64,000 bases of DNA, from assembly GCA_050944875.1 (NCBI GenBank), contig JBMNRW010000001.1:85436-149435 (forward strand), read 5' to 3'. Below the pieces are notes generated by a model. That model was not told the origin of the DNA. It saw only the letters and a program-made list of their open reading frames with translations, and searched no databases. Shown in pieces: positions 188-39,847 of the stretch; the stretch's first letter is position 1; each line of letters opens with the position of its first letter. Position numbers and translations under genes: made by a program. The stretch is from Patescibacteria group bacterium. Its GTDB lineage: Bacteria; Patescibacteriota; UBA1384; JACPKC01.

Positions 188-922
188 TTATTTCGCGTAG
201 CAGAAGGGCCGGAGTGATTCGTAGCGCCTATGAGCCAACTGCCTTGGGTAGTCCCGCGGCTCGAGCTCATATGGGAACTTTGGATCTTGCGAGAGTAGTT
301 TTGCGTACCGGTACACCAAAAGTCGGGCACGCAGTGAATTGTCGTGTGCGCGCTTGTCGTTTAGGTACTGGTCCGCTAGTTCAATGAATTGGTCGTACGC
401 TCGGGCAGGCGCTTTCCATTCCCACTCAAATGACCGAGCAAGCTCGCGAGCATCAGCGTTCGATAGCTGGGGCCGAAGTACGGTGACACGCTCGCGAATA
501 TGGCGTGAGTTTAGTACGTCTTCGAGCTCGAACTCAACGTCCCGGGCGGTCGCCCAGAGGCTGTTCTGTACACGCCCAAATCCTGCTTGGTTTAATCTGT
601 TGCGTAGGATATCCCGATACTTCCGTTGTCGCTCTGCGATATTGAATACCACGACGAGCCAAGTGCCCTCATGCGGTTCGACGCTGAGCTTCAGGTGTGA
701 GAGTGTTCGCGTCACCTTAGCTTGGCCATCTTGGGTGATCTGGTACCTTGTTTCCCCTGCCTTGCGGTCCCGGTTGGTTTTTACCCAGCCACGGCCAATG
801 AGACGGCCAAGTGTCGAGGATAACGTCTGCTTCGTCCGTCCCTCGAGCGCTGCTGTGCAGTCGTCAATCGCTCGTTCATCTTCATCATCAAGGAGCACCA
901 ACAATTCGTCGATGACCGTCAT
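188..922 (-). CDS. PaaX-family transcriptional regulator (N-terminal wHTH plus PaaX_C-like domain)
   Basis: Central WLVVVFNIAERQRKYRDILRNRLNQAGFGRVQNSLWA resembles the PaaX core; N-terminal winged helix; 244 aa. Confidence 0.5.
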   Translation of the reverse strand: MTVIDELLVLLDDEDERAIDDCTAALEGRTKQTLSSTLGRLIGRGWVKTNRDRKAGETRYQITQDGQAKVTRTLSHLKLSVEPHEGTWLVVVFNIAERQRKYRDILRNRLNQAGFGRVQNSLWATARDVEFELEDVLNSRHIRERVTVLRPQLSNADARELARSFEWEWKAPARAYDQFIELADQYLNDKRAHDNSLRARLLVYRYAKLLSQDPKFPYELEPRDYPRQLAHRRYESLRPFCYAK

Positions 923-3356: not shown

Positions 3357-5324
3357 CTAGCGGATTTCTGCGCCGAACGATGCTGCGAGCGCCCGTTCGA
3401 GGCCTGTATGTACGTCGTTGATGTCGGTTTCGGTTAGGGTTCGTTCCGGGTGTGAGTAGTACACGTGGTACGCGATGCTCTTGCGGTCAGGGCCGAGCTT
3501 GTCGGAGCTGAACTCATCAAACAGCTCGACGAGTTCGATAGATTCGTGGAACCCTGCGATGAAGGTCCGCACTGCGGCCGCGTCCGTGGTCCGTGGTACG
3601 AGAAACGCGATATCGCGGGTAACTGGCGGGTACTTCGAGAGTGGTCGGTACGATTGAACGATGGACGGAATGAAGGGATTTGTAGGGATTCGACGGGCGG
3701 CAGTAAGTGCCGTGAGCGGGAGCTCAATGAGCGTGACGCGTTTCCGTCTGATCTTGTACTGCTGAAGGAGTTCGGCTGTGAGCTCGATGACGCTCGCCTG
3801 TGCTGTGAGTGCGCCGGAATCGAGGCCAATCCGGTCGGCGAACTGCGCAAGCCAGGCTTGGGCAGGCAGCGTGTTCCCGGCAAGGGCGATTGCGAGGTTT
3901 GTCGTTTCGCCGGCTGGCGTGAAGACGTGACCAATCTCGAATACCTGGACCGGGTCGAAGGCGCTGTTCGCCGCAATGACGCGCGTCAGGCCGGGGAGGA
4001 GTGAGGGGCGAAGGAAACGCAACGTCGGGTTGAGCGGGTTTGCAAGCTCACCGGTCACGGGCAGCCCAAATCGGCCAAGGTCAGACTGGCCAATGAAGCT
4101 GTACGTCTGTACCTCGGACAGTCCGAGCTCCACGAGGCGGTCTTTAATCCCCTCTGCCCATTCGTACTCCGAGCGGGGCTGGCTACCTTCCCATGTCCGG
4201 AGCCGTTTTGTTGGCACTGTATCGTTGAGACCGGCGAAGCGAGCAATCTCTTCGGCAACGTCTTGCCAGTAGGCGAGGTCGAACCGCCAGGACGGGGCAA
4301 TAACCTCGTAGGTATGCTTCGACACTGGCGTGACGGCGCAGCCGAGCGCCGCTAGGTGCGCACGCTGCGTATCGGCAGCTGTTGCGAAGCCGAGGAGGCG
4401 GTCAACCCGCTGGGCGTCGACAGGGAGTGGACTCTTTGGCGATGGCTTGGCACCTATGAGTAGTGCTCCGACAGCTTTCGCTCTGCCGAACGGTTTGGAG
4501 CCGAGAAGCGCGATCGCCTCCTCGAGGACTGCATAGGAGATGGTCGCGTCGACGCCGCGCTCGTACCGCGCTGAGGCGGGTGTGCGGTGGTTCAATGTGT
4601 TTGCCCCACGACGAATGCGCCCGGTGTCGAAGATTGCGGACTGCAGGAGGACGCGTGACGTCGTCAGCCGGACTTCTGAGTTTGCGCCGCCCTGGATGCC
4701 GGCCAGGTCAACGAGACCTTCCCGATCGGCGATGACGAGCGCGCCATCCGGCAACGTGTGCTCCGTGCCGTCGAGCGTGGTAAGGCTCTCGCCGGCACGC
4801 GATTCCCGAGCCGTCAGCGTCTCGCCAAGGAGGGCGTCGGCATCGAACGCGTGGAGCGGCTGTCCGTAAAGCTCCATGAGGTAATTCGTGACGTCGACGA
4901 TGTTCGAGATCGGTCGAATGCCGAGTAAGGTGAGTTCGCGCTGCAACCACTCCGGGCTCGGGCCAACGGAAACGTTTTCCAGGAGGACAAGGTGGTACTG
5001 CGTAACGAGTTCGGGCGGTTCGATCGCGAGCGCAGGAGTAGTGAGTGCAGGGAGCGCTTCGAGCGTGCCGGCAGCAGTGAGGTGCAAGGGCGCTGGCCGA
5101 CGGGCATGGGTACGCGTCCGGTACGCGACGAGCTCCCGGGCAAGGCCGAGGTGGCTCATGGCGTCGCCGCGGTTCGGGGTGATGCTGACGTCGAGCACGG
5201 GTGTCTCGCCGGGCAGTAGCTCAGTTTCGAAACCGAGGAGCGTCAGCGTCTCTGCGAGCAGGGCCGGGTCAACGTCGGCGAGCGACGGCGCGAGCTTGGT
5301 GAGGAGTGATGGGAGTACTCTCAT
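3357..5324 (-). CDS. pheT: phenylalanine--tRNA ligase beta subunit (no N-terminal tRNA-binding domain)
   Basis: LDVSITPNRGDAMSHLGLARE (B3/B4 region) and C-terminal FDX-ACB domain; 655 aa vs ~800 typical. Confidence 0.85.
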   Translation of the reverse strand: MRVLPSLLTKLAPSLADVDPALLAETLTLLGFETELLPGETPVLDVSITPNRGDAMSHLGLARELVAYRTRTHARRPAPLHLTAAGTLEALPALTTPALAIEPPELVTQYHLVLLENVSVGPSPEWLQRELTLLGIRPISNIVDVTNYLMELYGQPLHAFDADALLGETLTARESRAGESLTTLDGTEHTLPDGALVIADREGLVDLAGIQGGANSEVRLTTSRVLLQSAIFDTGRIRRGANTLNHRTPASARYERGVDATISYAVLEEAIALLGSKPFGRAKAVGALLIGAKPSPKSPLPVDAQRVDRLLGFATAADTQRAHLAALGCAVTPVSKHTYEVIAPSWRFDLAYWQDVAEEIARFAGLNDTVPTKRLRTWEGSQPRSEYEWAEGIKDRLVELGLSEVQTYSFIGQSDLGRFGLPVTGELANPLNPTLRFLRPSLLPGLTRVIAANSAFDPVQVFEIGHVFTPAGETTNLAIALAGNTLPAQAWLAQFADRIGLDSGALTAQASVIELTAELLQQYKIRRKRVTLIELPLTALTAARRIPTNPFIPSIVQSYRPLSKYPPVTRDIAFLVPRTTDAAAVRTFIAGFHESIELVELFDEFSSDKLGPDRKSIAYHVYYSHPERTLTETDINDVHTGLERALAASFGAEIR

Positions 5325-6827: not shown

Positions 6828-7466
6828 ATGCATGTGACGTTTACGTACGATCCGAGCCGCGAAGTCGTACCGCTCCGCTTTGGTATGACGTACACGGCCG
6901 GCGGACAGAGGCAGTTGACCGCGTTCGAGCAGCGGATCCTGGCGGCGCGGGTTGATCCGGCAGATGTAGGAGCAGTCGCATCGCTCGCACGGGTTGTGCT
7001 CGACGAGCACGGGGTGGATGTTGGAGCGGTGACTAGGCGGTACGAAGCGGCTTGGCTCCCGCACGAGGCGGAGGTGCTCCGTCGTTTTCAGCGCATGTTT
7101 GCAAATGACTGGGATCCTGGGCAGGTTGCGGCATACCTGACCGTCAGCAAGCGGTGCCCATACAACGTGGCGAACCGCCTATTCTTCGTCTCGTTCCTCC
7201 GGACGACGTACGTCGCGAACTCTCTTCACGAACTCCAGCACTTCTTCGTCCATGAGCTCTACGAGAACGACTTCGCGGCGCGCGGCTTAGGGAGTGAATT
7301 TCCTCACTTTAAGGAATCCCTCACCGTGCTCCTGAACGAGGCGTTCGCCGACATTATGGAAGCGCCGGATGCCGGGTACGAGATGCACGCAGAACGGCGC
7401 CAGCGGATTCTCGAGCGGTGGCGCGCTGGTGAAACAATCCGAGCAATCGCTGCCTCGTGGCAGTAG
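6828..7466 (+). CDS. hypothetical protein with HExxH motif (possible zinc-metallopeptidase-like)
   Basis: 212-aa ORF on the opposite strand between two minus-strand operons; contains LHELQHFFVHELYE (HExxH...E); no family recognised. Confidence 0.4.
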   Translation: MHVTFTYDPSREVVPLRFGMTYTAGGQRQLTAFEQRILAARVDPADVGAVASLARVVLDEHGVDVGAVTRRYEAAWLPHEAEVLRRFQRMFANDWDPGQVAAYLTVSKRCPYNVANRLFFVSFLRTTYVANSLHELQHFFVHELYENDFAARGLGSEFPHFKESLTVLLNEAFADIMEAPDAGYEMHAERRQRILERWRAGETIRAIAASWQ

Positions 7467-7478
7467 TCCTCCCTGCGT

Positions 7479-7513
7479 AAAAAAAACGTACGGCACCGAA
7501 AGGTGTCGTACGT
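7479..7513. terminator. rho-independent terminator (T8 on minus strand after rpsI; A8 on plus)
   Basis: ACGTACGGCACC-GAAA-GGTGTCGTACGT hairpin immediately preceded on plus by AAAAAAAA; on minus the hairpin is followed by TTTTTTTT, closing the rplM-rpsI transcript. Confidence 0.7.
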
Positions 7514-7539
7514 TCTGTTGCGTGATGTCTAGTTGAAGG

Positions 7540-7923
7540 TTACCGCTTTGCCCACTGCGGTGCGCGGCGGGCGCGCTTGAGGCCCGGTTTCTTCCGCTCC
7601 TTCTCGCGCGGATCGCGGGTCAGGAGGCCAGCCTTCTTGAGCGCTGACTTGAAATCAGCTTGGTACGCGACGAGTGCGCGGGCAATGCCGTGGCGGACTG
7701 CTTCGAGCTGTCCGTTTACACCACCGCCGAGGACTTTCGCAGAAACGTCCACCTTGTCGGCGACGCCGGCAAGCGTGAGCGGTTGGCGGACCACCGGTTG
7801 CTCGGCAGCGATCTCTTTGCCGTTGATCGTCACTTTACCGGTGCCGGTTGTGAGTCGGACTCGGGCGACGGCGCGCTTTCGGCGGCCGACCGCGGCAACG
7901 TAGGATGTCTTTCGTTCTGCCAT
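7540..7923 (-). CDS. rpsI: 30S ribosomal protein S9
   Basis: Typical S9 with C-terminal RRAPQWAKR. Confidence 0.95.
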   Translation of the reverse strand: MAERKTSYVAAVGRRKRAVARVRLTTGTGKVTINGKEIAAEQPVVRQPLTLAGVADKVDVSAKVLGGGVNGQLEAVRHGIARALVAYQADFKSALKKAGLLTRDPREKERKKPGLKRARRAPQWAKR

Positions 7924-7925
7924 GG

Positions 7926-8312
7926 TTACTCCTCAGCTCCGGTCGCGTGGATCGTCAGGCGCTTCATGAGCTCTTTCCGGAGCCGGTTGTCCGGGAGCAT
8001 GCCGTAGACGGCTCGTCGGATGACCTCTGCCGGATCGCGTTCCATAAGGTGCTTCAGTGTCTCCGACTTCAAGTTTCCGAGGTAGCCGGTGTGCTTGTAG
8101 TACACCTTGTCATCGAGCTTGCGACCCGTGACGCGCACCTTGGAAGCATTGATGACGGTGACGAGGTCGCCCGTGATCTTGTGCGGTGCGAACGCAACTT
8201 TGTCTTTGCCGCGGAGTGCGACGGCGATCTCGGTGGCGAGACGGCCGAGCACCTTGCCCGACGCATCAAACGTCCGGGTTGCGCTCTCAGTTGGGAGGTA
8301 CGTCTTCGCCAT
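7926..8312 (-). CDS. rplM: 50S ribosomal protein L13
   Basis: MAKTYLPTESATRTF..., L13 family. Confidence 0.95.
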   Translation of the reverse strand: MAKTYLPTESATRTFDASGKVLGRLATEIAVALRGKDKVAFAPHKITGDLVTVINASKVRVTGRKLDDKVYYKHTGYLGNLKSETLKHLMERDPAEVIRRAVYGMLPDNRLRKELMKRLTIHATGAEE

Positions 8313-8315
8313 AGG

Positions 8316-8756
8316 TTACTCCGTTGCCTTCGCTGTCGTGTTCTTTGCGGCTGGCGTCGCGGTGTTCTTCGCTGCCTTCTCAGGCTTCGCGGCCCGGTCG
8401 ACGAGGAGTACTATTGCCTTAGGTGCCGCGTCACCGACGCGGTGGCCGGTCTTTAGGATGCGGGTGTAGCCACCTGGACGGGTAACTGCTCGCTTGGCGA
8501 GGTCGTCGACGAGTTTCGTCACAGTGTCGTCGTGTCCCACGATCGCGATAAGGCGTCGTCGCTCTGCGAGCGAGGCCATGCCTTCGGCTGAAGCAACGCG
8601 CTTCGCCATGGTGATCCACCGCTCGACGATCGACCGGACCTCCTTGGCCTTCGGGAGTGTGGTTTCGAGCTTCTCCGCACGCACGAGCAGGCGCCCCATG
8701 TTTGTGAGGAGGTGTTCGCGGTGCGCTTTCGTGCGTCCGAACTTCCGGGTCATCAT
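8316..8756 (-). CDS. rplQ: 50S ribosomal protein L17
   Basis: MMTRKFGRTKAHREHLLTNM... plus an Ala/Lys-rich C-terminal tail. Confidence 0.95.
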   Translation of the reverse strand: MMTRKFGRTKAHREHLLTNMGRLLVRAEKLETTLPKAKEVRSIVERWITMAKRVASAEGMASLAERRRLIAIVGHDDTVTKLVDDLAKRAVTRPGGYTRILKTGHRVGDAAPKAIVLLVDRAAKPEKAAKNTATPAAKNTTAKATE

Positions 8757-8761
8757 CTGCC

Positions 8762-9541
8762 TTACTCGGCCGATTCGGCCGATTCCTTCTTCGTCTTCTT
8801 CGCTGCCTTCTTCGGCTTCACCGACTGGGTCGCTGCTGCGTCGACTGAGGCCTGAGTAGCGTCGCGGACGATCGTGAAGTGCTCGGTGAGGATCTGCGAG
8901 GCGTGCACCATCGCTTCAGCCGGCGTGACGGTCCCGTCCGTGGTGAGCTCGATAGAGAGCTTGTCGAAGTCGGTTCGGTCGCCGACACGGGTGTGCTCAA
9001 CGTCGTAGTGGACGCGCTTGATTGGCGTGAAGATCGAGTCGACGGCAATCGTGCCGATCGGCAGCTTCTCACGGTCTTTCTTCTCAGTCGGGAGGTAGCC
9101 CTGTCCCTTCTCGATGGTGACTTCCATGGAGAGCTTGCCATCCTTGTCGAGGGTAGCCAGGTAGTGCTCAGGATCGGCGATCGCTACATCGGCGTTCGGC
9201 GCAAAATCCGCAGCCGTGACTGTGCCGGCGCCCTTCTTCTCGAGCTTCAAGACCACTGGCGCGTCGCTCTCAGAGCGGACACGGAGCGTCTTGAGGTTCA
9301 AGATAAGGTCGACGACGTCTTCGCGCATGCCCTTGACCGTTGAGAACTCGTGATCGACGCCCTGGATCTTCACGTACGCGACCGCTGCGCCTTCGAGCGA
9401 GGTCAGGAGAACGCGTCGGAGCGAGTGCCCAACGGTCATGCCGTACCCTGGCGAGAGCGGTTCAATGACGAAGGTAGAGACCCGGTCGGATTCCGGCTGC
9501 TCGGTGATCGTCATGCGCTCGGTTTCAGGAAGTGTGTACAT
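8762..9541 (-). CDS. rpoA: DNA-directed RNA polymerase alpha subunit, NTD only (no alpha-CTD)
   Basis: 259 aa: alpha-NTD (dimerisation/assembly) followed by a Lys-rich tail (KPKKAAKKTKKESAESAE). rplQ starts 6 nt downstream, leaving no room for a CTD. Confidence 0.9.
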   Translation of the reverse strand: MYTLPETERMTITEQPESDRVSTFVIEPLSPGYGMTVGHSLRRVLLTSLEGAAVAYVKIQGVDHEFSTVKGMREDVVDLILNLKTLRVRSESDAPVVLKLEKKGAGTVTAADFAPNADVAIADPEHYLATLDKDGKLSMEVTIEKGQGYLPTEKKDREKLPIGTIAVDSIFTPIKRVHYDVEHTRVGDRTDFDKLSIELTTDGTVTPAEAMVHASQILTEHFTIVRDATQASVDAAATQSVKPKKAAKKTKKESAESAE

Positions 9542-9565
9542 TGGTGCCTCTCTTTCCCCTTAGTA

Positions 9566-10165
9566 CTACCGTGAGTAGAACTCAACGATGAGCTGCTCTT
9601 CGATTTCCGTTGGGATCTGCTCGCGTGACGGAATCTCGAGGAGCGTGCCTGTCAAACCAGTACCGCGCTTAAGCCAAACTGGTAGCTCGGCTGCTGACGG
9701 TTTTCGCTCGAGCTTCACGAGTTCAACAGTGTCGCCAGCATTCACCTGATAGGACGGGATGTTGACCTTCTTGCCATTGACGCGGACGTGGCCGTGTGTC
9801 ACGAACTGCCGTGCCTGTGGTCGTGAGTCGGCGAAGCCGAGGCGGAAGACGATGTTGTCGAGCCGGCGTTCGAGGAGCTGGAGGAGCGTGGTGCTCGTGT
9901 CTGTTGTCGCCCGGCTCGCGGTCTGGAAGTACCGGCGGAACTGGCGCTCGAGGATGCCGTAGATCGCCTTCATCTTCTGCTTTTCGCGGAGCTGTCGGCC
10001 GTACTCAGAGACTTTCCCTCGCCGTCGACGTGGGCCGTGCTGGCCTGGCGCGTAGGCGCGGCGGGTCATCGGGTTCTTCGGGCCAGCGCTGCGTTCACCT
10101 TTTAGGAAGAGGTTGACGCCGGCGCGGCGACTAATGCGGTCTGTTGGTCCGGTGTAGCGAGCCAT
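9566..10165 (-). CDS. rpsD: 30S ribosomal protein S4
   Basis: MARYTGPTDRISRRAGVNLFLKGER..., S4 family. Confidence 0.95.
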   Translation of the reverse strand: MARYTGPTDRISRRAGVNLFLKGERSAGPKNPMTRRAYAPGQHGPRRRRGKVSEYGRQLREKQKMKAIYGILERQFRRYFQTASRATTDTSTTLLQLLERRLDNIVFRLGFADSRPQARQFVTHGHVRVNGKKVNIPSYQVNAGDTVELVKLERKPSAAELPVWLKRGTGLTGTLLEIPSREQIPTEIEEQLIVEFYSR

Positions 10166-10173
10166 AGGGATCC

Positions 10174-10554
10174 TTACACGCGCCGGGGCTTCTTCGCCCG
10201 GACGCCGTTGTGTGCGATTGGGGTAACGTCGGTAATGCTCGTCACGGCGACGCCTGTTCCGGCGATCGATCGGACCGCTTGCTCGCGGCCAGAACCGACA
10301 CCGCTCACGAACACGTCAGCTTCCTGGAAGCCGCGGAGTTTCGCCTTGTCGAGTGCGGCGTGCATAGCAGTCTGCGCAGCGTACGGGGTCGCCTTGCGGG
10401 CGCCCTTAAATCCCTGGCCGCCGGCGCTCGCCCACGCGATAACGCCGCCCTGCGCGTCAGTGACGGAGATGATGGTATTGTTGAACGTGGCCTGGACGTA
10501 GATCCGGCCACGGGCCACTGGTGCCAGCTTCTTCGCTTTTCGTGTTACTGCCAT
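10174..10554 (-). CDS. rpsK: 30S ribosomal protein S11
   Basis: GRIYVQATFNNTIISVTD, S11 family. Confidence 0.95.
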   Translation of the reverse strand: MAVTRKAKKLAPVARGRIYVQATFNNTIISVTDAQGGVIAWASAGGQGFKGARKATPYAAQTAMHAALDKAKLRGFQEADVFVSGVGSGREQAVRSIAGTGVAVTSITDVTPIAHNGVRAKKPRRV

Positions 10555-10598
10555 GGTACCTCTCGCTTGCTCTGACTAGATGACGGGTGTTGTCGGGC

Positions 10599-10985
10599 TT
10601 ACGTCTTCGACGCGGTTGGCTTGCGGCCGCTGCCGACAGTGACCCGTTTACCGCGCTTCGTCCGGGCGTTCGTCTTCGTCCGCTGGCCACGGGCCGGCAG
10701 TCGCTTTGCGTGCCGGGTGCCACGGTAGGTGCCGATCTCGATGAGACGCTTCACGTTCTGCGTGGTCTGCATCCGGAGTTCGCCCTCAACGGTGTGCTGC
10801 TTTTCGATGAGTGCGCGAATGCGCTCGAGTTCGTCATCGGTAAGCTTCATCGTTCGGACGCCGCCATCGATCTTCGCCTGAGCGAGGATCTGCTCTGACT
10901 TCTTCCGGCCAATGCCAAAGATCGCGGTGAGTGCGATGACGATCGGCTTGTTGTTCGGGAGGTTGATCCCTGCGATGCGTGCCAT
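10599..10985 (-). CDS. rpsM: 30S ribosomal protein S13
   Basis: MARIAGINLPNNKPIVIALTAIFGIG, S13 family. Confidence 0.95.
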   Translation of the reverse strand: MARIAGINLPNNKPIVIALTAIFGIGRKKSEQILAQAKIDGGVRTMKLTDDELERIRALIEKQHTVEGELRMQTTQNVKRLIEIGTYRGTRHAKRLPARGQRTKTNARTKRGKRVTVGSGRKPTASKT

Positions 10986-10991
10986 AGCGTA

Positions 10992-11105
10992 CTACCCCTG
11001 GCGCTGCTTGTGCTTCTTATTCTGGCAAATGACCCAGACACGACCGTGGCGCCGAATGATGCGGCACTTCTGGCAACGGGGTTTTGCGGATGCGGAGACT
11101 TTCAT
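10992..11105 (-). CDS. rpmJ: 50S ribosomal protein L36 (not in ORF track)
   Basis: Minus-strand ATG at 11105 gives [37 protein letters not shown], the Zn-ribbon L36 signature; sits between infA and rpsM as expected. Confidence 0.9.
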
Positions 11106-11114
11106 GGCGACCTC

Positions 11115-11369
11115 TTAGCGACCTTGTGTTGGGTTCGTGTCGTGCGGGTTATACCGGTAACTGATACGGCCTCGGGTGAGGTCGTACGGAGAGAGCTCCA
11201 CCTTTACGCGGTCGCCCGGGAGGATGCGGATGCGGTGCATCCGAACTTTGCCGCCCAGTGTCGCGAGCACGGTGTGCTCACCCTGCTTCATCTCGAGGGT
11301 TACCCGAAACATAGCATTCGGTAACGCTTCCGTTACCGTTCCATCGAATTCAACAACGTTTTTTGACAT
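11115..11369 (-). CDS. infA: translation initiation factor IF-1
   Basis: [17 protein letters not shown]...[24 protein letters not shown]1-like OB fold. Confidence 0.95.
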
Positions 11370-11417
11370 GTGGAATTGCGTGAACTATCGGGAGTGTACT
11401 GGAAGTCTGGCTGACTG

Positions 11418-12188
11418 TCAACGGGTTTGCACCGCTTGCCGTGACCCTGTGAGGAGCTCGGCACCATCCGGGGTGACGAGCACCGTCTCCTCGACATGGG
11501 CGGCGCGCGTCCGATCGGCGGCGATAATTGTCCAGTCATCTGCTTCGGTTCTGACGTCTCCGCTCCCTCTCGTGAGCATCGGTTCAATACAGAACGTCAT
11601 GCCGGCCTGGAGCGAAAGGCCCGTTCCGCGGTTCCCGTAATTGGGGATATCCGGCGCCTCGTGAAGCGATCGCCCGATGCCGTGGCCGGTGAGGTCGCGG
11701 ACGAGCCCGTACCCATGCCGTTCGATGACAGTCTGGATTGCCGCTTGGACGTCGCCGAGCTTCACGCCTGGCCGGATCTGGCCGAAGCCGGCGTAGAACG
11801 CCTCCCACGCCGCCGCAACGAGCGCACTGTCGGCACTGTCGGCTGGCGGAACGACGAGTGAGCGAGCAGCATCAACGTGCCAGCCCTGGAGCTTGACGCC
11901 GAGATCGACGCTCACGAGGTCGCCAGGAGCGATCGGACGCTGGGAGGGAATGCCGTGCACTACCTCTTCGTTGATAGAGATGCACAGCGAGGCTGGGTAG
12001 CCGCGGTACCCCTTGAAGGCTGGTTCGGCGCCGTGGTCACGGATATAGGTTTCGGCAAGTCGATCAAGTGCCACGCCGGTTGCGTCCGGCTGGACAGCGT
12101 GCACGACAACGTCGAGCGCGCCAGCAAGGATTTCCCCTGCTCGGCGCATGCGTGCAATTTCTTCGGGCGTGCGGAGGTCAACAGCCAT
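11418..12188 (-). CDS. map: type I methionine aminopeptidase
   Basis: Catalytic core (HGIGRSLHE, metal ligands); start placed at MAVDLRTPEEIARMRRAG (ATG 12186-12188), directly after the adk stop. The ORF's extra 47 N-terminal codons overlap adk. Confidence 0.85.
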   Translation of the reverse strand: MAVDLRTPEEIARMRRAGEILAGALDVVVHAVQPDATGVALDRLAETYIRDHGAEPAFKGYRGYPASLCISINEEVVHGIPSQRPIAPGDLVSVDLGVKLQGWHVDAARSLVVPPADSADSALVAAAWEAFYAGFGQIRPGVKLGDVQAAIQTVIERHGYGLVRDLTGHGIGRSLHEAPDIPNYGNRGTGLSLQAGMTFCIEPMLTRGSGDVRTEADDWTIIAADRTRAAHVEETVLVTPDGAELLTGSRQAVQTR

Positions 12189-12190: not shown

Positions 12191-12772
12191 TTAGAGGATG
12201 CCGCGCTTGATGAGCGCCGCAACGATCGCTTCGTGCACGTGTTCTATCGTGTCGTCGCCGTTGATATCGATCACCCGGCCTTCCCTGCGAAAGTGGTCCA
12301 CGACCGGTCGGGTTTCGGCGTAGGACCATGCGAGCCGCTTCTCAATCATCTCTTTCGTATCGTCGTGCCGGCCACGCTTCAGGAGTCGCTCGACCGAGAT
12401 ATCGTGCGGGACTTCGAGGTTGATGACGATCGGTTCAGCGAGCTTGTGCTTCGCACGGATATTCGTGAAGGCCCGAGCGTTCTCCATCGAGCGGAGGACG
12501 CCGTCGAGAATCGCGCCATGCGACACATCGGTTTTTGCGAGGTGGTCGTCAAGGACATCCTGCCAAACGCCAATTGGGACAAGCTCACCTGCTGAAAGGA
12601 TCGCTTTGACGCGCTGCCCGAGTTCTGTCGGTTCGGCTGCAAGCGCACGGAACAGGTCGCCCATCGTGATGATTGGCACGTTGCCGAGCTCCTTTTTTAA
12701 GAGGTTCGCCTGCGTGCCCTTTCCGCTTCCGCTTGGACCGGTGAAGAGAAGAACAACCTTATGATCGCCCAC
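12191..12772 (-). CDS. adk: adenylate kinase
   Basis: P-loop LLFTGPSGSGKGTQANLL; a GTG start at 12770-12772 preceded by GAAGGAG gives a 193-aa protein. The ORF track's upstream ATG would overlap the preceding gene by 53 nt. Confidence 0.85.
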   Translation of the reverse strand: MGDHKVVLLFTGPSGSGKGTQANLLKKELGNVPIITMGDLFRALAAEPTELGQRVKAILSAGELVPIGVWQDVLDDHLAKTDVSHGAILDGVLRSMENARAFTNIRAKHKLAEPIVINLEVPHDISVERLLKRGRHDDTKEMIEKRLAWSYAETRPVVDHFRREGRVIDINGDDTIEHVHEAIVAALIKRGIL

Positions 12773-12785
12773 CCTGACTCCTTCG

Positions 12786-13829
12786 CTACTTCTGGATAGT
12801 AATGAGTTGGTTTGCCGCTCGTCGCTCGATTCGCGCACCAGTCACCAGGTCAACCAAGTGAATAGTACCGCTCGGCAGCTCATCCGACGTCGTCGGTGCG
12901 ACGAGTACCCCGAGCACACCGGCACCGACGCAGAGGCTCCGCTCGCGGCCAGGAATATCGATGAGCGGGGCTCGTGCGCCGTCAGTGAGAGAGAGACGCT
13001 CGACGACGGCTACTGCTGCGCCATCGGCGGTGCGGGGCTCGACGACGAGCGCCAACGCGTTCTCGTCGATCCACGCGACATCGACCACCGCTTGGGTGTT
13101 TGGCAGTGTTGCGCGATCAGTTGGTTTGCCGGATGCGTCCACCGTTGCAAGGACTGTCCCCCCGTCGGGACTGGTCTGTCCCCTTGCGAATGCAATCGTC
13201 TGTCCATCTGGTGACCAGGCAAGCGGTCCGATTCCCGCTGTGTCTGACGCGACGGTTTTGCTGCTTCCACCTTCGAGTGAATCTATGACCAAATTAAACC
13301 CGAAGTCGCGCTCGGCATTGTTGAAATACACTGCTGCAACTTTACCCGTTGCGGACACAACCGGCGTGGCACTGCTCATCGGGAACGTACTTCTGCGGAC
13401 GGCGAGATCGCCGGTTCCGTCAAGCTGGATCTCAACAAGCGAAGATTCGGCTGAGCCGTTCCGTCGAGCAATCGCGAAGACCCGGGTGCCATCTGTCGCG
13501 GTTCCGAGGACACGCTCGAGCTTCAGTTCCTCATCTGTGTCGGTAAAGAGGATGCGTTCAGTTCCGTCCGGTTCGGTGCGGACGATCGTCGTGACCATAC
13601 CGGTCTTTCGGAGGGTTACCGTGGCGACGGCGATCGATTCGGCGGTGTTCGTCGACGTGTCTTCGGTCGTCGTCTTGACAGCGGGTTCTGCCTCGTCAGA
13701 CTTCGGTTCGGTTGGCTCTGTTGGCAACGGCGCTGAAGCCTGGTCTGCGACGAGGAGGATACCCCCGAAGCCGAGCGCGAGGAGCGCCAGCGTAAAGAAC
13801 CCCTTCGCTGCGGACGACTTAGAACTCAT
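12786..13829 (-). CDS. secreted/membrane-anchored PD40 (TolB-like) beta-propeller repeat protein
   Basis: N-terminal hydrophobic anchor, Thr/Glu/Pro-rich linker, then LAWSPDGQTIAF-type PD40/WD40-like repeats; inserted between secY and adk. Confidence 0.6.
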   Translation of the reverse strand: MSSKSSAAKGFFTLALLALGFGGILLVADQASAPLPTEPTEPKSDEAEPAVKTTTEDTSTNTAESIAVATVTLRKTGMVTTIVRTEPDGTERILFTDTDEELKLERVLGTATDGTRVFAIARRNGSAESSLVEIQLDGTGDLAVRRSTFPMSSATPVVSATGKVAAVYFNNAERDFGFNLVIDSLEGGSSKTVASDTAGIGPLAWSPDGQTIAFARGQTSPDGGTVLATVDASGKPTDRATLPNTQAVVDVAWIDENALALVVEPRTADGAAVAVVERLSLTDGARAPLIDIPGRERSLCVGAGVLGVLVAPTTSDELPSGTIHLVDLVTGARIERRAANQLITIQK

Positions 13830-15081
13830 AGCGTCGGGTTTGCAGGTGGGCGCGGATCTGGCGCATCGTGTCGAGGACTACCGACACGATAATGAGCGTC
13901 GACGTTCCGCCAAGCACGAGCGTCTGGATGTTCGTGAGTGCCTGGACGATGAACGGCAGGACGGCGAGGAGGCCAAGGAAGAGCGCGCCGAAGAGCGTCA
14001 GCCGTGAGAGTACGGCGCCGAGGTAGTTCGCGGTTTCGCGGCCGGGGCGGACACCAGGGACGAAGCCGCCTTGGCGCTGGATGTTCTCAGCGACCTGCTC
14101 CGGCTGGAAGACGACGAACGTGTAGAAGTACGTGAAGATGATGACGAAGAGGAAGTACGCGATACCGTAGAACGTGTCGTTTCCGAAGAGGTCGATCGTT
14201 TTCTCGGCCGCGTCTTGAATCCAGGCGACGTCGACGGTCTGGAGGAACCGGGCGACCACCGGAGGGAAGAGCATGAGCGAGAGCGCGAAGATGATCGGGA
14301 TGACGCCGGCCATTGCGACTTTGAGCGGGAGGTTTGTCGAGACGCCACCCTGCCGGGCAAGGCCGCGGACGCGACGCGCATAGATGATCGGAATCTGCCG
14401 CTCGGCCTCGTTCACGAAGACGATCGCGACGGTAGCCAGGAGGGCGAGAACCGCGAAAATGATGACGCTCAAGTAGCCGGTCTGGTCGATTGTCGCGTAC
14501 GTCTGCGAGAGCGATACAGGAATCCCAGTCATAATGCCGAGCGCGATGAGGAGTGAGATGCCGTTCCCAATGCCGTACTCACTGATGAGCTCGCCAAACC
14601 ACATGACGAGGAGCGTTCCAGCGCTGATCGTGAGGAGAGTCGCGATGAGGTCGAAGCCGCCAGCGAGCTCAATGACGCCTTGGTTCCTAAGGAGGAGGAG
14701 TGTCGAGTAGCCCTGGAGGACAGCGAGCGGCACGGTGAGGAGTCGCGTGTACTGGTTGATCTGCTGGCGACCGGCTTCGCCCTCTTTCTGGAGCTCTTCA
14801 AGGCGTGGCACGATGACGACGAGGAGCTGGAAGATGATCGAGGCGGTAATGTACGGGCCGACGCCCATGAGGACGAGGGAGAAGTTCTCCATGGATCCAC
14901 CAGTGAACAGATTGAGAAGGCCGAAGAGCTCATTGCGCGCGAAGAACTCCCGGAGCGCCGACAGGTCGACGCCTGGCATCGGGATGTGCGCGAGAACGCG
15001 GAACAAGACGAGGAGCCCCATCGTCGTGAGGACTCGTCGTCTGAGGTCAGGATTCGCGAAGAGTGTGCGGAGCGTCGTCAT
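13819..15081 (-). CDS. secY: preprotein translocase subunit SecY
   Basis: 10-TM protein with SecY signatures (FTGGSMENFSL, IPIIYARR). Confidence 0.95.
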   Translation of the reverse strand: MTTLRTLFANPDLRRRVLTTMGLLVLFRVLAHIPMPGVDLSALREFFARNELFGLLNLFTGGSMENFSLVLMGVGPYITASIIFQLLVVIVPRLEELQKEGEAGRQQINQYTRLLTVPLAVLQGYSTLLLLRNQGVIELAGGFDLIATLLTISAGTLLVMWFGELISEYGIGNGISLLIALGIMTGIPVSLSQTYATIDQTGYLSVIIFAVLALLATVAIVFVNEAERQIPIIYARRVRGLARQGGVSTNLPLKVAMAGVIPIIFALSLMLFPPVVARFLQTVDVAWIQDAAEKTIDLFGNDTFYGIAYFLFVIIFTYFYTFVVFQPEQVAENIQRQGGFVPGVRPGRETANYLGAVLSRLTLFGALFLGLLAVLPFIVQALTNIQTLVLGGTSTLIIVSVVLDTMRQIRAHLQTRRYEF

Positions 15082-15577: not shown

Positions 15578-15579
15578 GG

Positions 15580-23649: not shown

Positions 23650-23808
23650 ACACCCTCATTTATGGGCACGTACGAAAAAGGGCCGGGATCTGTCCACCTT
23701 GGGCGGCGATTTCCCGACTCACCCTGCTCGCACTGTTAGGGGTTCGCTGAACTTCTTGGGGCAGTGTACGTGTTTAGAGACACCTTGTCAACGGCTACGT
23801 GCCGGCGG

Positions 23809-23837: not shown

Positions 23838-23886
23838 CGCACCGAGCTTTGCCCTTTTCCATTTTCTCGATTGGAGAACACCAATA

Positions 23887-32572: not shown

Positions 32573-35500
32573 TTACTTCCGCCCCTTCCTGAAGCCCGTC
32601 CCGGCTGGGATCAGGCGGCCAATAATGACGTTCTCCTTCAATCCCTTGAGGTGGTCGACCGCACCCCGGATCGCGGCGCCGATGAGGACGCTCGTCGTCT
32701 CCTGGAAGGAGGCTGCCGAGAGGAAGCTCGGCGTCGTGAGCGCGACGCGCGTAACACCAAGGAGTACCGGTTCGACGGTTGCCTCGTTCTTCCCCTTGCG
32801 GAGCTTGCGGTGCGCCTGCGCAAGCGCTCGTCGGTCGACGAGTTCGCCTGGTAAGAAGCGCGTGCCACCACCGTCGACCACGTGGACCTTCGAGAGTAGC
32901 TGTCCGACAATAATTTCAATGTGTTTGTCGTTCAGATCTTGGCCCTGAGAGGTGTAGATCTCTTGGATCTCTCGGATAATGTACGACTGCACTGCATCCT
33001 TGCCCTGGTACTTGAGGAGCTTTTGGAGGTCCAGGTGTCCTTCGGTCAATGCTGCACCGCGAACGACGCGCTCGCCGTCCTTGATGCGCGGTGTCTGCGT
33101 CGTGTCGAGCGGGTATTCGACGCTCATCGGCTCGAGGGCCTCGACGACGATCGTGCGATCTTTCACCGTCGCATTGCCACCGATGTTCGTTCGGATCGCC
33201 TTCTTACCCGGCGCCGAGGCAATTGCCTGCTTCGCCTTCACGCTCTCACCGTTCTTCACGAGGAGCTCGTAGCCCTCTGGTACTTCGACCGTGGTCTGGT
33301 CGATCGCATCCGCGATGACCTCGATCACGCGGCCGCTCTTCCGATCTCGGATCCGAGCCGTACCCTCGAGGTCAGCCATGATGGCTGGCGTCTTCGGCGA
33401 CCGCGCCTCGAGGAGCTCTTCAACGCGCGGGAGACCGCTCGTTGCGTCCGAACCGGCGACACCACCGGCGTGGAAGGTGTCGAGCGTGAGCTGGGTCGAG
33501 GGCTCACCGATCGCTTGCGCTGCGGTAATCCCGACGACTTCGCCGAGCTCAACGAGCTGCCCGGTTGCGAGGTCGCGGCCGTAGCACGCCTGACAGATCC
33601 CCCACTCGGTCTCGCAGTTCATTGGCGTGCGGACGGTGACTTCGGTAATCGTCGCGTCAGCCTCGATCGCCTGCGCAGCCTCGGGGCTAATGAGTTCGCC
33701 CGCGGCAACAGCTTCACTGTCCGCTGTCACAGCAGTAAGTGCGACACGTCCGTTCAGACGGTCACCGAAGGCGGTACCGCGCTCCTCGGACTCGGCGCGC
33801 GTTACCGTTACCCCGCGCTCGGTGCCACAGTCGGCCGTCGTGATAATCACGTCCTGCGCGACGTCGACGAGGCGACGGGTAAGGTAACCAGCGTCTGCCG
33901 TACGGAGCGCCGTGTCAGTCTTACCCTTACGACCAGCGTGCGTCGCTGTGAAGTACTCGAGCTCGGTCAGACCTTCTTTGAAGTTCGAGGTGATCGCGGT
34001 CTCGATAATCTCACCGGCCGGGTTAACAACGAGCCCCTTGAGGCCAGCCATCTGGTTGAGCTGCGTCTTCGAACCTCGGGCTCCAGATGCAACTGCAATG
34101 TGGACGGGGCTGTTCTTATCGAACTGCTCAATCATGTCCTTCATGATCGCGTCACGGGCCTGCTCCCAGCGTCGGATGATCTGCAGTCGGCGTTCGCTGT
34201 CGGAGATGAGACCCTGCTGATAGAGATCCTGGAGCTTCTCCACGTCCTTCTCACTCTGCTCGATGATCCCGTACTTTGTCTTCGGTGCGTGGACGTCGCT
34301 CATCGCGAAGCTCATGCCCGAGCGGAGCGCGTGCTCGTAGCCCAAGACCTTGATCTGGTCGACGGTCTCCGCTGCGGCGGCTTGGCCGAGCTTCGTGATC
34401 GTCTCGAAGATAATCCGCTTCAACGCCTTGCTGTCCATCGCGTCATTGCGGAACCGGAGTTCCTTTGGAATGACGTTGTTGAAGAGAATGCGACCGACGG
34501 TCGTTTCGACGAGCTCGTCTGCCGCCCCGTCTCGGGGGCTCATGCGAACCTTAATCTTCGCCCGAACGTGCAGGTCACCCATCTGGTACGCGAGGATCGC
34601 TTCGTTCTTCCCAGAGAAGATCTTGCCCTCACCCTTCACGCCATCCTGGAAACTCGTGAGGTAGTAGCAACCGTACACCATGTCGAGGTTTGGCGAGACG
34701 ACCGGCTCACCCGAGCTCGGCTTGAGGAGGTTCTTCGCCGATTCCATGATCTCGCGTGCTTCCCAGATTGCCTGGGCCGAGAGCGGGACGTGGACGGCCA
34801 TCTGGTCACCGTCGAAGTCTGCGTTGTACGCGTAGCAGACGAGCGGGTGCAGCTGAATCGCCTTCCCTTCAATGAGGACCGGCTTGAACGCCTGGATGCC
34901 GAGGCGGTGCAGGGTTGGAGCACGGTTCAAGAGGACATACTTCTCAGCGGTCACCTTCTCGAGCGCGTCCCAGACTTCTGGCGCGCGCTTCTCGATGAGG
35001 CGTGACGCGTTCTTGACGTTCTGAATGTGCCCTTCGGCAATGAGCTGGGCAATGACGAACGGCTTGAAGAGCTCGAGCGCCATCGTTTTCGGAATGCCGC
35101 ACTGGTTGAGCTTGAGCTCAGGACCAACGACGATGACCGACCGCCCAGAGTAGTCAACGCGCTTACCGAGGAGGTTCTGACGGAATCGCCCCTGCTTCCC
35201 GCGCAGCATGTCCGAGAGCGACTTCAGGCGTCGCTGAGTCGCACCGGCAGACACAGCGCGGCCGCGGCGGGCAGAGTTATCGATGAGCGCGTCCACCGCC
35301 TCCTGGAGCATGCGCTTCTCGTTCCGGCAGATCACCTCCGGCGCACCTTGGGAGAGGAGCTTCTTCAGCCGGTTGTTGCGGTTCAGAACACGGCGGTAGA
35401 GGTCGTTCAGGTCGCTTGCCGCGAACCGACCACCGTCGAGCTGGACCATCGGCCGCAGGTCTGGCGGAATGACTGGCAGGCGCGTCATGACGAGCCACTC

Positions 35501-36334
35501 AGGTGAAATCTTCGCCTCGCGCATCTGCGAGAGGAGTTGTAGTCGGCGCAGGAGCTTGCGACGCAAGGCGTCGCCAGCATCCTCAGCGCGCGCTTCGAGC
35601 TCTTTGACCTCGGTGTCGATGTCGATCGACTTAAGGAGCTCAAGTACTGCTTCTGCACCGATGCCAACGCGGATAACGTTGCCGTACCGGAGTGAGATCT
35701 CCTGGTAGCGCGCCTCGGAGAGAATGAGCTTACGCTTCAGCGCTTGGAGTTCTTGCTTCGTCTCGCGGTACGCCGCTTCGACGTCAGCTGCTGGCGCAGC
35801 GTTCTCGCCCGCTTCTGCGGTGAGCTCGGCGTACTCTTCTTCAAGTTGCTTTAGGAGGTCGTCACGGAGCTCGGTGTCGACGTCGAGAACAATGAAGCCC
35901 GCGAAGTAAATCACCTTCTCAATGTCTGCCACGGACATATCGAGGAGCTGTGACAAGACAGATGGAATGCCACGGACGAACCAGATGTGGGCGACCGGTG
36001 CCGCGAGCTCGATGTGTCCCATGCGCTCGCGCCGGACGGACGACCGGGTGACCTCAACGCCACACTTGTCGCAGACGACGCCCTTGTACCGGATCTTCTT
36101 GTACTTCCCGCAGTAGCACTCCCAGTCCTTCGTCGGACCGAAGATTCGCTCGTCGAAGAGTCCGTCGCGTTCCGGCTTCTGAGTCCGGTAGTTAATGGTC
36201 TCTGGTTTCAGGACCTCGCCGTAGGACCACTGGAGGACTTTCTCCGGGCTCGCGACCGCAATGCGGACGGCGTCGAAGTCAGTCAGGCGGATCCCCTCTC
36301 GGTCAGTTCGCTGTTTCGGTTGCTGTGCGCTCAT
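32573..36334 (-). CDS. rpoC: DNA-directed RNA polymerase beta' subunit
   Basis: Zn-finger [30 protein letters not shown] active site; 1253 aa. Confidence 0.98.
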
Positions 36335-36343: not shown

Positions 36344-39300
36344 TTACTCCTCACCCATCACTTCGTCCGGGCTCGCTTCCGGCGGGTTCTCCTCCTGTCC
36401 GGCCAGGAACTCGGTCGCCTCAATGTCACTCTGCTCGTCGCTCGGCGTCTCCTCGGTACCTTCCGCTGGCACTGGAGCCGGCTTCTTGCCGCCGTGGATG
36501 CTCGGGTCGACGAGTTCACCTGAGTTCGTCACGAGCTCGATGTCGAGCCCGAGGCTCTGCAACTCGCGAATGAGTACGTAGAACGAGGCAGGGATACTCG
36601 GTCGCTGAATCTCTTCTGAACGGATAATCGACTCGTATGCTTTCGATCGTCCAACGACGTCGTCGGATTTGATTGTCAGCATCTCTTGCAGCGTGTGCGC
36701 AGCACCGTACGCTTCGAGCGCCCAGACTTCCATCTCGCCGAATCGCTGGCCGCCGAACTGCGCCTTACCGCCGAGCGGCTGCTGAGTGACCATGGAGTAC
36801 GGCCCGATCGAACGCGCGTGCATCTTGTCATCGACGAGGTGGATGAGCTTCAGGATGTACGTGTACCCGACAGTCGTTTCCTGGTCGAACTCGTTCCCCG
36901 TACGGCCGTCACGGAGCTTCACCTTGCCGTTCGCAGGCAACCCGGCCTCGACGAGGAGTTCACGGATCTTCTCTTCCTTCAACCCTTCGAAGACCGGCGA
37001 TGCCATCGTCTTCCCGAGCTTCTGCGCCGCCCAGCCGAGGTGCGTCTCGAGCACCTGGCCGAGGTTCATACGCGACACGACGCCGAGCGGGTTCAGAATA
37101 ATGTCGACTGGCGTCCCGTCCGGCAGGTACGGCATCTCCGCCTGCGGGAGGATCGCCGCAATGACGCCCTTGTTCCCGTGTCGACCGGCGAGCTTGTCAC
37201 CGACCGAAATCTTGCGGAGCTGGGCAATCGAGACCTCGACGAGCTGGTACACGCCGGTCGGGAGCTCGTCGCCCGCGTCTTTCGAGAAGATCTTGACGTC
37301 GACGACCTTCCCGCGCTCGCCGTGTGGCAAGCGGAGCGAAGTATCCTTCACGTCTTTCGCCTTCTCGCCGAAGATCGCGCGGAGAAGCTTCTCCTCGGCG
37401 GAAAGCTCGGTCTCGCCCTTCGGCGTGATCTTCCCGACGAGGATGTCACCAGCCGACACCTCGGCACCAAGCCGAATGATGCCCTGGTCGTCGAGGTTTG
37501 ACAGCGCATCCTCGCCGACGTTTGGAATGTCGCGGGTAATGACTTCTGGGCCGAGCTTCGTATCGCGGACTTCGATCGGGTACTTCTCGATGTGAATCGA
37601 GGTTAAGAGGTCTTCCCGGACGAGCCGGTCAGAGATGACGATCGCATCCTCGTAGTTGAGACCCTTGTACGACATGTACGCGACGAGGAGGTTCTGGCCG
37701 AGCGCGAGCTCGCCGCCGTCGGTGGCCGGGCCGTCAGCGAGAACATCGCCCCGCTTCACCTTCTGGCCGACCTTCACGAGGGCGCGCTGGTTGATCGACG
37801 TCGCCTGGTTTGAGCGGATGAACTTGTGGAGCTGGTACCGGTCCTCAACATCTTTCCCGCCTTCCTTGCTCGTTACGACGATCTCAGCAGCGCTGACGTA
37901 CGTGACTTCGCCGGCACGGCGAGCCATGACCATTGAGCCTGAGTGCTCAGCTGCGTCCTTCTCCATACCAGTGCCGACGAGCGGCGCCGACGGCTTGATG
38001 AGCGGGACTGCCTGTCGCTGCATGTTCGATGCCATGAGCGCGCGGACGATATCGTCGTTCTCGACGAATGGAACGAGCGACGGCGAGATAGCGACGATCT
38101 GCTTCGGTGAAACGGACATGTAGTCGATCTCGGAGACGTCGACTGTCACTGGCTTTCCGTTGCGCCGCGCGAGCACCTGCGCCTCAGCAAAGGAACCGTC
38201 TGGGTTCGTCGGCGTCGAGGCAGGAGCGATCGTCGATACTTCCTCAACGGCAGCGTCGAGGTGGACGAGCTCGTCGGTCACGACGCGCTTCCCACCCTTC
38301 GTCGCAACCTTGAAGTACGGGGTCTCGATGAACCCGTACGGGTTGACGTACCCGTAGCTCGCGAGATAACCGACGAGACCGATGTTCGGGCCTTCCGGCG
38401 TTTCAATCGGGCAGATTCGGCCGAAGTGTGACGCGTGCACGTCACGAACTTCGAACCCGGCGCGTTCGCGTGAGAGACCGCCTGGACCCGTCGCGTTGAG
38501 CGTCCGCTTGTGCTCGAGCTCTGCGAGCGGGTTGGTCTGGTTCATGAACTGAGAAAGCTGCGAGCTCGCGAAGAACTCTTGGAGGATCGCCTGCACCGGC
38601 CGGTTGTTGATGAGGCTGGCTGGGGTGACGAGCGCAGGGTCGGCAACGCTCATGCGATCTTTGACGATTCGCTCCATGCGCAAGAGGCCGACGCGTAGTC
38701 GCCCTTGCATGAGTTCACCGACCGCCCGGACACGCCGGTTCTTCAAGTGGTCAACGTCGTCAGCGGTCGCCATCGGGTCATTGTTGAGCCGGATGATCTC
38801 CTTGATGACCTCGATAACGTCTTCGACGCGCAGCACGCGGAACTCCGGCGTCTCCGGGTGGTTCACGCCAAGGCGCTGGTTCATCTTGTACCGGCCAACC
38901 TTGCCAAGGTCGTAGCGCTTCGGGTTGAAGAGCATGGTCTGGAGGAAGGTCTTCGCGGTGTCAGGTGTTACGAGGTCGCCTGGTCGAATGCGCTTGTACA
39001 CCTCGATGAGCGCGTCTTCGTACGACTCAGCTGGGTCGCGCTCGAGCGTGCGTTCGATGAAATTGTGTTCTTCGTCGAGGTCAACGCCGGCGAACGCCTG
39101 ACGGATCTGGTCGGTGGAGAGGTTGCCGATTGCGCGCAGGAACGTCGTGACCGGGATCTTCCGCTTCCGGTCGATCTTTACCGAGATCACGTCTCGGCCG
39201 CTCGTCTCGAACTCAAGCCAAGCACCGCGGGAAGGGATGATCTTTGCACCGAAGAGCTTTCGGCCGGCGCTCATCTCGTCCATGAAGAGGACGCCGTAGC

Positions 39301-39691
39301 TCCGGACAATCTGTGAGACGACGACACGCTCGACGCCGTTGATGATGAACGTGCCACGGTCGGTCATAACGGGGAAATCACCGAAGTAGACTTCTCCCTT
39401 CTTCGTCTTCTTTGTGACCTTGTTCTCGAGGGTCACCTTCACGTGGAGCGGCGCCTTGTAGGTGAGGTTCCGCGCCCGCGCCGTCGTCTCAGAGATCTTC
39501 GGCTGACCAAGCTCGTACTCACCGAAGGCCAATGTGTAGTTCTGATTCGTGAAGTCCTCAATCGGGGAAATCTCCGCCAGGAGCTCCCGCATCCCCTCGG
39601 TGAAGAACCATTCGTAACTCGCGGTCTGGATCTCCGTGAGATCCGGCAACGGCACGTGCCGTGCTGCTTTCGTGAACCGAACTCGCTCCAT
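36344..39691 (-). CDS. rpoB: DNA-directed RNA polymerase beta subunit
   Basis: Full beta-subunit signatures; start at [11 protein letters not shown] (ORF extends to 39712). Confidence 0.98.
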
Positions 39692-39847
39692 GCCGACTCC
39701 TCTCTGCCACACCCCGGTGCTAGGGGTGGGAACAAGAAACGCAAAAAACGCCCAAACTAGGGCCCTCTCCAGATCCTATGTTCTGGCGGTTCGCTCTTCC
39801 ACTTGGTGACTCACCCTGCTGCGCTACGGGTTGATACCGGGATCGTA

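Follow-up and report, generated by a model that had tools for sequence, protein, structure and literature searches.

An RNA polymerase alpha subunit that ends after its N-terminal domain in a Berkelbacteria-like member of the Patescibacteria

The rpoA locus

We analyzed a 64-kb stretch of DNA (positions 85,436 to 149,435 of contig JBMNRW010000001.1; "the window" refers to this stretch at its full length), in which the gene under study is rpoA, which codes for RNA polymerase (RNAP) subunit alpha. In model bacteria, the C-terminal domain of this subunit (alpha-CTD) serves RNAP as the module that recognizes UP elements and is contacted by many activators, and textbooks treat it as universal. In the window, rpoA ends after the part that codes for the N-terminal domain (alpha-NTD), followed by a short tail rich in Lys. 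The host is a Berkelbacteria-like patescibacterium (candidate phyla radiation [CPR]), with ca. 60% G+C. The gene, its parts, and its immediate neighbors are as follows.

8762..9541, minus strand: rpoA coding sequence, 259 codons plus a TAA stop (8762-8764) (list of open reading frames [ORFs], NCBIfam equivalogs)
8825..9511, minus strand: folded alpha-NTD, residues ca. 11 to 239, comprising the dimerization and insert domains and, at residues 207 to 239, a long terminal helix (Pfam, AlphaFold2, Foldseek)
8765..8824, minus strand: disordered C-terminal tail, residues 240 to 259 (predicted local distance difference test [pLDDT], composition of homologs)
8786-8818, minus strand: Lys-rich core of the RpoA tail, KPKKAAKKTKK, residues 242 to 252
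8757..8761, minus strand: spacer of 5 nt that separates the rpoA stop from the start of rplQ (sequence)
8316..8756, minus strand: rplQ, ribosomal protein L17, with a Lys/Ala-rich tail end (PF01196, E = 2.8e-27)
9566..10165, minus strand: rpsD, ribosomal protein S4, the upstream neighbor of rpoA (PF00163 and PF01479)

The original prediction, made from the letters of this DNA, was that of a 259-residue alpha subunit composed of the alpha-NTD and a Lys-rich tail, and the ORF list, Pfam, and the disorder in the AlphaFold2 model all bore it out. The same is true of the junction with rplQ, which had been described as starting 6 nt downstream: five intergenic bases separate the two genes, and the ATG of rplQ (8754-8756; another ATG lies at 8751-8753) begins at the sixth base past the rpoA stop. 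With rplQ beginning 5 nt past the stop, the 3' end of rpoA leaves no space for an alpha-CTD, as had been claimed. The position of rpoA between rpsD and rplQ is the usual one in the alpha operon, and the order S13-S11-S4-rpoA-L17 is kept in the related loci L001, L002, L089, and L090 as well as in others.

Domain content and fold of the alpha subunit

The Pfam scan matched RpoA with PF01000 (residues 57 to 172, E = 1.4e-33) and PF01193 (residues 27 to 222, E = 1.6e-18), and the alpha-CTD family, PF03118, was absent from it even at an E value of ≤1. Along the same lines, the NCBIfam equivalogs for rpoA matched over their N-terminal ca. 235 to 250 positions only, out of model lengths of 298 to 344 (for NF003519, positions 6 to 252 of 320). 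Two of these models passed their cutoffs (NF003519, 288.3 versus 277; TIGR02027, 265.7 versus 227.8), and six other rpoA submodels scored below theirs. Alignment with RpoA from model bacteria, proposed when the truncation was first noticed, gave a concordant picture. In BLASTP, residues 26 to 233 corresponded to residues 28 to 242 of Escherichia coli RpoA with 43% identity (with an E. coli query that may be inexact), with nothing matching beyond residue 233, and 60 alpha chains from the PDB aligned from residue ca. 5 up to residue ca. 225 to 245 of the target and no further.

The AlphaFold2 model, built from 40 homologs, had a mean pLDDT of 89.7, with values of about 95 across residues 11 to 230. 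Residues 240 to 259 had no secondary structure, and there the mean pLDDT dropped to 58 (residues 241 to 250) and 49 (residues 251 to 259). Foldseek superimposed the model on alpha-NTD chains of solved RNAP structures over ca. 218 residues, with a target-normalized TM score of up to 0.94 and a root mean square deviation of ca. 1.5 Å. The LRR motif, R42/R43, was invariant among the 40 homologs, with R43 aligned with R45 of E. coli. The two large partners of the alpha-NTD in assembly are also encoded in the window.

36344..39712, minus strand: rpoB, beta subunit, 1,122 residues (Pfam: Rpb2 domains only)
32573..36334, minus strand: rpoC, beta' subunit, 1,253 residues (Pfam: Rpb1 domains only)

With both genes present and the beta-binding Arg conserved, an alpha2-beta-beta' assembly is predicted for this enzyme.

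Conservation of the short form among relatives

The identical 259-residue RpoA is on record in independent read sets, among them a Logan contig (L088) with the same 5-nt gap before rplQ. A more distant ortholog of 261 residues (P0003), 75% identical to that of the window, is present both on a 293-kb contig of the NCBI genome GCA_964423885.1 and in a Logan assembly independent of it. Its loci (L089/L090) have the same gene order as the window (S4-rpoA-L17-L13-S9-RbfA-x-PheS-PheT-AsxRS-peptidase S11-PaaX), and there the gap between rpoA and rplQ is 3 nt (L089).

A survey of related lineages for the same truncation had also been suggested, and it found the short form to be widespread among them. 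Of the 120 best database homologs, 119 were 248 to 317 residues long and devoid of PF03118; the names attached to this set were "Candidatus Berkelbacteria" or "Patescibacteria group." The sole exception, P0106 (412 residues, with PF03118), contains an internal duplication, is most likely an assembly artifact, and was set aside. When representatives at 50% identity were considered, about twenty separate short, Lys-tailed clusters were present among the best 150. A profile built from 14 distant short forms recovered 119 further proteins, 117 of them without an alpha-CTD, from sources named Candidatus Uhrbacteria, Candidatus Parcubacteria, and Patescibacteria group. Altogether, the same CTD-less architecture is found in more than 230 homologs from many assemblies. 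With these two sets and the syntenic ortholog at 75% identity, the truncation is fixed within the lineage and not sporadic.

CTD-bearing alpha subunits also exist in the radiation, e.g., the 310-residue alpha of a metagenome-assembled genome labeled Berkelbacteria (L002). This locus came from a scan of genome contigs for RpoA, the hits of which were mostly from Bacteroidota and other phyla and which also provided L001 (short form) and material for one of the alpha-CTD profiles described below. Single-gene trees of the alpha-NTD (neighbor joining [NJ], and NJ with 100 bootstraps) intermixed both forms. The best-supported pair of a CTD-less and a CTD-bearing alpha in the bootstrapped tree was P0253/P0192 (68%), and the deep nodes had 0 to 30% support, too low for counting alpha-CTD losses.

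Gene content is in agreement with a patescibacterial host, with no L30 between S5 and L15, a type IV secretion system pilin-like protein, DUF4012, and CdaA. The rpsE gene (S5) stops 2 nt before rplO (L15) (15125-16101, minus strand), with no rpmD (L30) between them. The absence of L30 is a pattern reported for CPR bacteria, and the missing rpmD supports the placement of the host among them.

Composition and possible role of the Lys-rich tail

The final 20 residues of the window RpoA contain 7 Lys, the frequency of this amino acid across the proteins of the window (62 ORFs) being 4.9%, and its final 25 residues were the most Lys-rich among the 62 ORFs checked. In the 119 CTD-less close homologs, the tail beyond the alpha-NTD had a median length of 37 residues (range, 19 to 81) and a median net charge of +6. 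At least 4 Lys were present within the final 20 residues in 117 of these 119, with a median Lys fraction of 0.45, and in 115 of the 117 proteins of the Parcubacteria/Uhrbacteria-type set, with a median of 8 Lys. Composition is thus what is kept across the homologs, length and sequence being variable.

For comparison, the interdomain linkers of 78 CTD-bearing alpha subunits were acidic (median net charge of −2; 3.6% Lys). Lys-rich linkers were found in 7 of 28 CPR-like CTD-bearing proteins (P0143, P0159, P0167, P0176, P0184, P0201, and P0248; 24 to 45% Lys and net charges of up to +17), versus none of 18 from other phyla. This distribution suggests that the tail is a retained interdomain linker; its composition has probably been under selection.

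Tails rich in Lys, Ala, and Pro and of low complexity are also present in ribosomal proteins L17, L4, and L22 of the window (8316-8390, 22358-22430, and 20424-20500, respectively, all on the minus strand), with L4 ending in ...KPAAPKAAKNPAPKAAK, and a tail of the Lys/Ala-rich kind is known from the C terminus of parcubacterial uS19 (PMC9297842). In the organism of the window, basic extensions at the C terminus may be general among nucleic-acid-binding proteins.

As for the role of the tail, the most economical one, which we put forward tentatively and as a speculation that is somewhat more doubtful than probable, would be a sequence-independent electrostatic contact with DNA. A weak contact of this kind is favored because the tail emerges where the linker normally heads to upstream DNA. 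The support for this speculative role is the strong compositional conservation of the tail. In its disordered composition, rich in KK, AKK, and PKK, the tail resembles the C-terminal tails of histone H1, of mycobacterial HupB, and of chlamydial Hc1. Like H1-type tails (disordered, >25 to 30% Lys, and of low complexity), it has 7 Lys in 20 residues and low pLDDT values. However, at about 11 to 40 residues, tails of the type found in the window are far shorter, the resemblance implies no homology, and binding to DNA is hypothetical here.

Only a little less plausible than DNA contact, although on the whole still unlikely, is that the tail has no function of its own and is either the leftover, after the deletion, of a linker that was already Lys-rich or a by-product of the way in which these proteomes generally favor basic termini of low complexity. 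The Lys-rich linkers of some CPR-like CTD-bearing subunits are what would be expected of such a leftover, and the similar tails of L17, L4, and L22 here and of uS19 in Parcubacteria what would be expected of such a by-product, while neither the length of the tail nor its sequence is conserved and some tails are acidic overall. Against this, the basic end has been kept nearly without exception in both sets of homologs even though their alpha-NTDs are only ca. 40% identical. Besides, it is kept in a genome of 60% G+C whose proteins have 4.9% Lys, where AAA and AAG codons oppose the compositional bias, and in such compact genomes a neutral remnant should be lost through decay or trimming.

We find it improbable that the tail binds RNA or the ribosome instead of DNA, for instance in the coupling of transcription and translation or in the localization of RNAP, by analogy with the tails of ribosomal proteins. 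The closest compositional matches to it in the window are indeed the tails of ribosomal proteins of the same operon. In the known architecture of RNAP, however, the C terminus of the alpha-NTD faces the upstream side of the enzyme, and the linker leads to upstream DNA, which counts against such a role.

Search for an alpha-CTD encoded elsewhere

A separately encoded alpha-CTD had been named from the beginning as the observation that would overturn the prediction. Two hidden Markov models (HMMs) of the alpha-CTD were built, one from diverse phyla and another from CPR sequences, and they found their positive controls at E values of 1e-18 to 1e-30. With both, six-frame scans of the window and of the loci L001, L088, L089, and L090 (ca. 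121 kb from CTD-less genomes, i.e., the 64 kb of the window plus ca. 57 kb of related loci) gave nothing at an E value of <1. Neither did Pfam and the six-frame HMM scans of the window detect an alpha-CTD-like domain fused to beta or beta'.

Nevertheless, the domain might still be made, either from a separate gene, alpha then being a split subunit, or fused to some RNAP-associated protein, in which case its contacts would be reorganized and not lost, as the original prediction had considered. We regard this as even more improbable than a role in RNA binding. What can be said for it is that only ca. 6% of a typical genome of ca. 1 Mb is visible in the window, that the CPR alpha-CTD profile retrieved 23 short proteins (39 to 109 residues), 22 of them with PF03118, and that two records (L085 and L086) contain an intact alpha-CTD ORF of 59 residues with its own ATG. 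However, all six of the short PF03118 ORFs that were examined sit between an alpha-NTD coding region and rplQ; none of them is at a separate locus, and none comes from a genome in which rpoA abuts rplQ. The empty scans of 121 kb and of beta and beta' point in the same direction. In addition, we know of no obvious way in which an untethered alpha-CTD would bring its contacts to RNAP, which also counts against a split subunit.

Of the six ORFs examined, five arise from frameshifts, a gap, or gene fragmentation. A frameshift cuts off the alpha-CTD in both L081 and L082, and one of these two also has a run of N within the alpha-NTD. L083 is a long-read contig in which most genes, rpoA included, are broken, the ORF in L084 sits after a gap of 100 N, and L087 is a fragmented NCBI record whose protein is marked as partial. 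L085 and L086 were rejected as cases of a trans-encoded alpha-CTD, their ORF being the 3' end of rpoA past an in-frame stop. In these records (L085, 3475-4407, from ENA ERZ27315384 k141_188413; L086, 360-1292, from JGI 3300011187 Ga0136596_1011664), an in-frame TAA lies in the linker region of rpoA, with an alpha-NTD ORF of 245 residues followed 15 nt downstream, in the same frame, by the alpha-CTD ORF of 59 residues. The two records agree over all 933 nt and possibly stem from one sample. They could capture alpha-CTD loss in progress, an alpha subunit that is truly split, or a stop codon subject to readthrough.

Finally, although artifactual ORFs limited to the alpha-NTD do occur in public data (L081 to L084 and L087), the chance that the short rpoA of the window is itself a two-domain gene cut by a frameshift, a premature stop, or a misassembly, the other outcome that had been named as fatal to the prediction, is negligible, since no sequence downstream could hold an alpha-CTD, the identical ORF recurs in independent read sets, the junction is kept at 75% identity in a syntenic ortholog from two assemblies, and all of the more than 230 homologs are alike.

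Functional consequences

We consider it probable that the rpoA gene of the window is intact and functional, that it encodes an alpha subunit made of the alpha-NTD plus a disordered Lys tail of ca. 20 residues, that the alpha-CTD was lost through an ancestral deletion at the 3' end of the gene, and that contacts with UP elements and class I activators are lacking as a result. Under this interpretation, the alpha-NTD would dimerize and nucleate the assembly of beta and beta'. The 3' part of rpoA would have been deleted in an ancestor of the lineage, taking the alpha-CTD with it, and the short form would now be standard both in this clade and in further large clades of the Patescibacteria. The RNAP would then work without alpha-CTD contacts to UP elements or to activators of the class I type, and promoter recognition would be left to sigma and to factors contacting the enzyme elsewhere on its surface. 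The basic charge of the tail could provide a weak, sequence-independent contact with upstream DNA or with another nucleic acid. The loss of UP-element recognition and of class I activation is inferred by analogy from the biochemistry of the E. coli enzyme. A PaaX-like regulator is encoded at 188..922, indicating that regulation as such is not absent.

Several points weigh against this interpretation. The scan for an alpha-CTD in this genome covers 64 kb, and a copy encoded in trans or fused to another gene, or a second rpoA, could lie elsewhere in it. Not all tails are basic, 10 of the 119 having a net charge of ≤0 (P0064 reaches −8). The tail of RpoA may also reflect a general compositional habit of these bacteria, as seen in L17, L4, L22, and uS19, and not a specific substitute for the alpha-CTD.

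One could go further and propose that a large share of the Patescibacteria have exchanged the alpha-CTD for a disordered tail of the polylysine type, maintained by selection and clamping upstream DNA irrespective of its sequence, after more than one loss within the radiation from ancestors with Lys-rich linkers, with L085 as a living intermediate. We see this extension as possible but doubtful, somewhat more so than a tail without function. If true, promoters in these bacteria would be built without UP elements and would do without activation of the class I type.

The CTD-less patescibacterial clades amount to a substantial part of bacterial diversity. If the absence of the domain holds genome-wide, promoter prediction, regulator annotation, and activation models based on E. 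coli would not be transferable to them, and they would constitute a natural experiment on the requirements of a minimal bacterial RNAP.

Comparison with known alpha subunits

Canonical E. coli RpoA (329 residues) consists of the NTD, a flexible linker, and the CTD. The subunit encoded in the window is like it in the alpha-NTD, the LRR motif, and the position of the gene in the operon, and differs in that the whole PF03118 region (a helix-hairpin-helix domain of ca. 80 residues) is missing and that a terminal Lys-rich tail stands in place of the acidic or neutral linker. In E. coli, the alpha-NTD is enough for alpha2-beta-beta' assembly and basal transcription, and the alpha-CTD is needed for recognition of UP elements and for contact with CRP, IHF, and Fis (PMC8321222). 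The constructs alpha-235 and alpha-256, which are limited to the NTD, assemble RNAP without contact with UP elements or activators (PMC8321222), and the same would be expected here. However, those proteins were made in the laboratory and are tailless, whereas the present one is basic tailed and fixed in its lineage.

Natural alpha subunits devoid of the CTD are on record for Hodgkinia, for Tremblaya, and for the chloroplasts of Euglena, and a single passing sentence of the same paper, from 2021, extends the loss to Parcubacteria (PMC8321222). In all of these, as in the window, alpha is reduced to the NTD, with small genomes and few regulators. The short forms of the Parcubacteria/Uhrbacteria type represent the same phenomenon within the same radiation. 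Compared with the published cases, the lineage of the window stands apart in being Berkelbacteria-like and in having 60% G+C.

Archaeal RpoD and eukaryotic Rpb3 are likewise alpha-like assembly platforms without an alpha-CTD of the bacterial type. Nonetheless, the window RpoA has a sequence of the bacterial kind, scored only 19.5 bits with the archaeal model NF001988 (cutoff, 153), has neither an Fe-S nor a zinc domain, and is presumably a homodimer.

For Parcubacteria, the passing sentence cites PMC4508563, whose main text makes no mention of RNA polymerase. In the literature searched, we found no paper that analyzes the CTD-less alpha of CPR bacteria or its Lys tail, PMC8321222 being the sole link found, and alpha-CTD loss in CPR bacteria was not raised in papers on the CPR ribosome (PMC9297842) or CPR protein families, in a 2025 promoter survey, or in a 2026 review of alpha. 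The short alpha is, therefore, of a known but barely documented kind, of which the Berkelbacteria-like lineage is a further member. Where the original prediction treated the truncation as a peculiarity of one gene, it turns out to be the norm across large parts of the Patescibacteria, and since it had also been mentioned in print (PMC8321222), the feature is less novel than was implied. It is ordinary for its lineage and underappreciated for bacteria overall.

Other features of the window

Several departures from the usual gene arrangements were observed among the housekeeping genes of the window. In the spc operon, an ORF of 347 residues (12786-13829, minus strand), with only a weak PD40 repeat, is located between secY (13819-15081) and adk (12191-12838). 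At the same position, L089 holds an ORF of 296 residues without Pfam matches, so the insertion seems to be conserved in the clade.

The S10 operon is normally contiguous. Here, rpsJ (S10, 27052-27387) and rplC (L3, 23008-23649) are ca. 3.4 kb apart, and the insert (23650-27051) contains a TerC/DUF475-like membrane protein (24636-25223), a tRNA-Ala (25629-25704), two ORFs without matches, and, on the opposite strand, a gene similar to those for nucleoside 2-deoxyribosyltransferases (26383-26994). The usual L10-L7/L12-rpoB-rpoC arrangement is not kept either: upstream of rpoB, obg (GTP1_OBG plus MMR_HSR1; 39848-40885, minus strand) is found instead of rplJ-rplL.

PheT (3357-5324, minus strand) has only 655 residues (657 in L089). 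Pfam did not detect the N-terminal tRNA-binding domain, the first match being B3_4 from residue 109 on; PheT may be another shortened housekeeping protein.

Lastly, the only strong sigma-70-like site within positions 7400 to 11500 is TTGACA-17-TACACT (11393-11421, minus strand), with 10 of 12 matches. Lying just upstream of infA and within the 3' end of map, it is a candidate for an internal promoter of the alpha-operon region.

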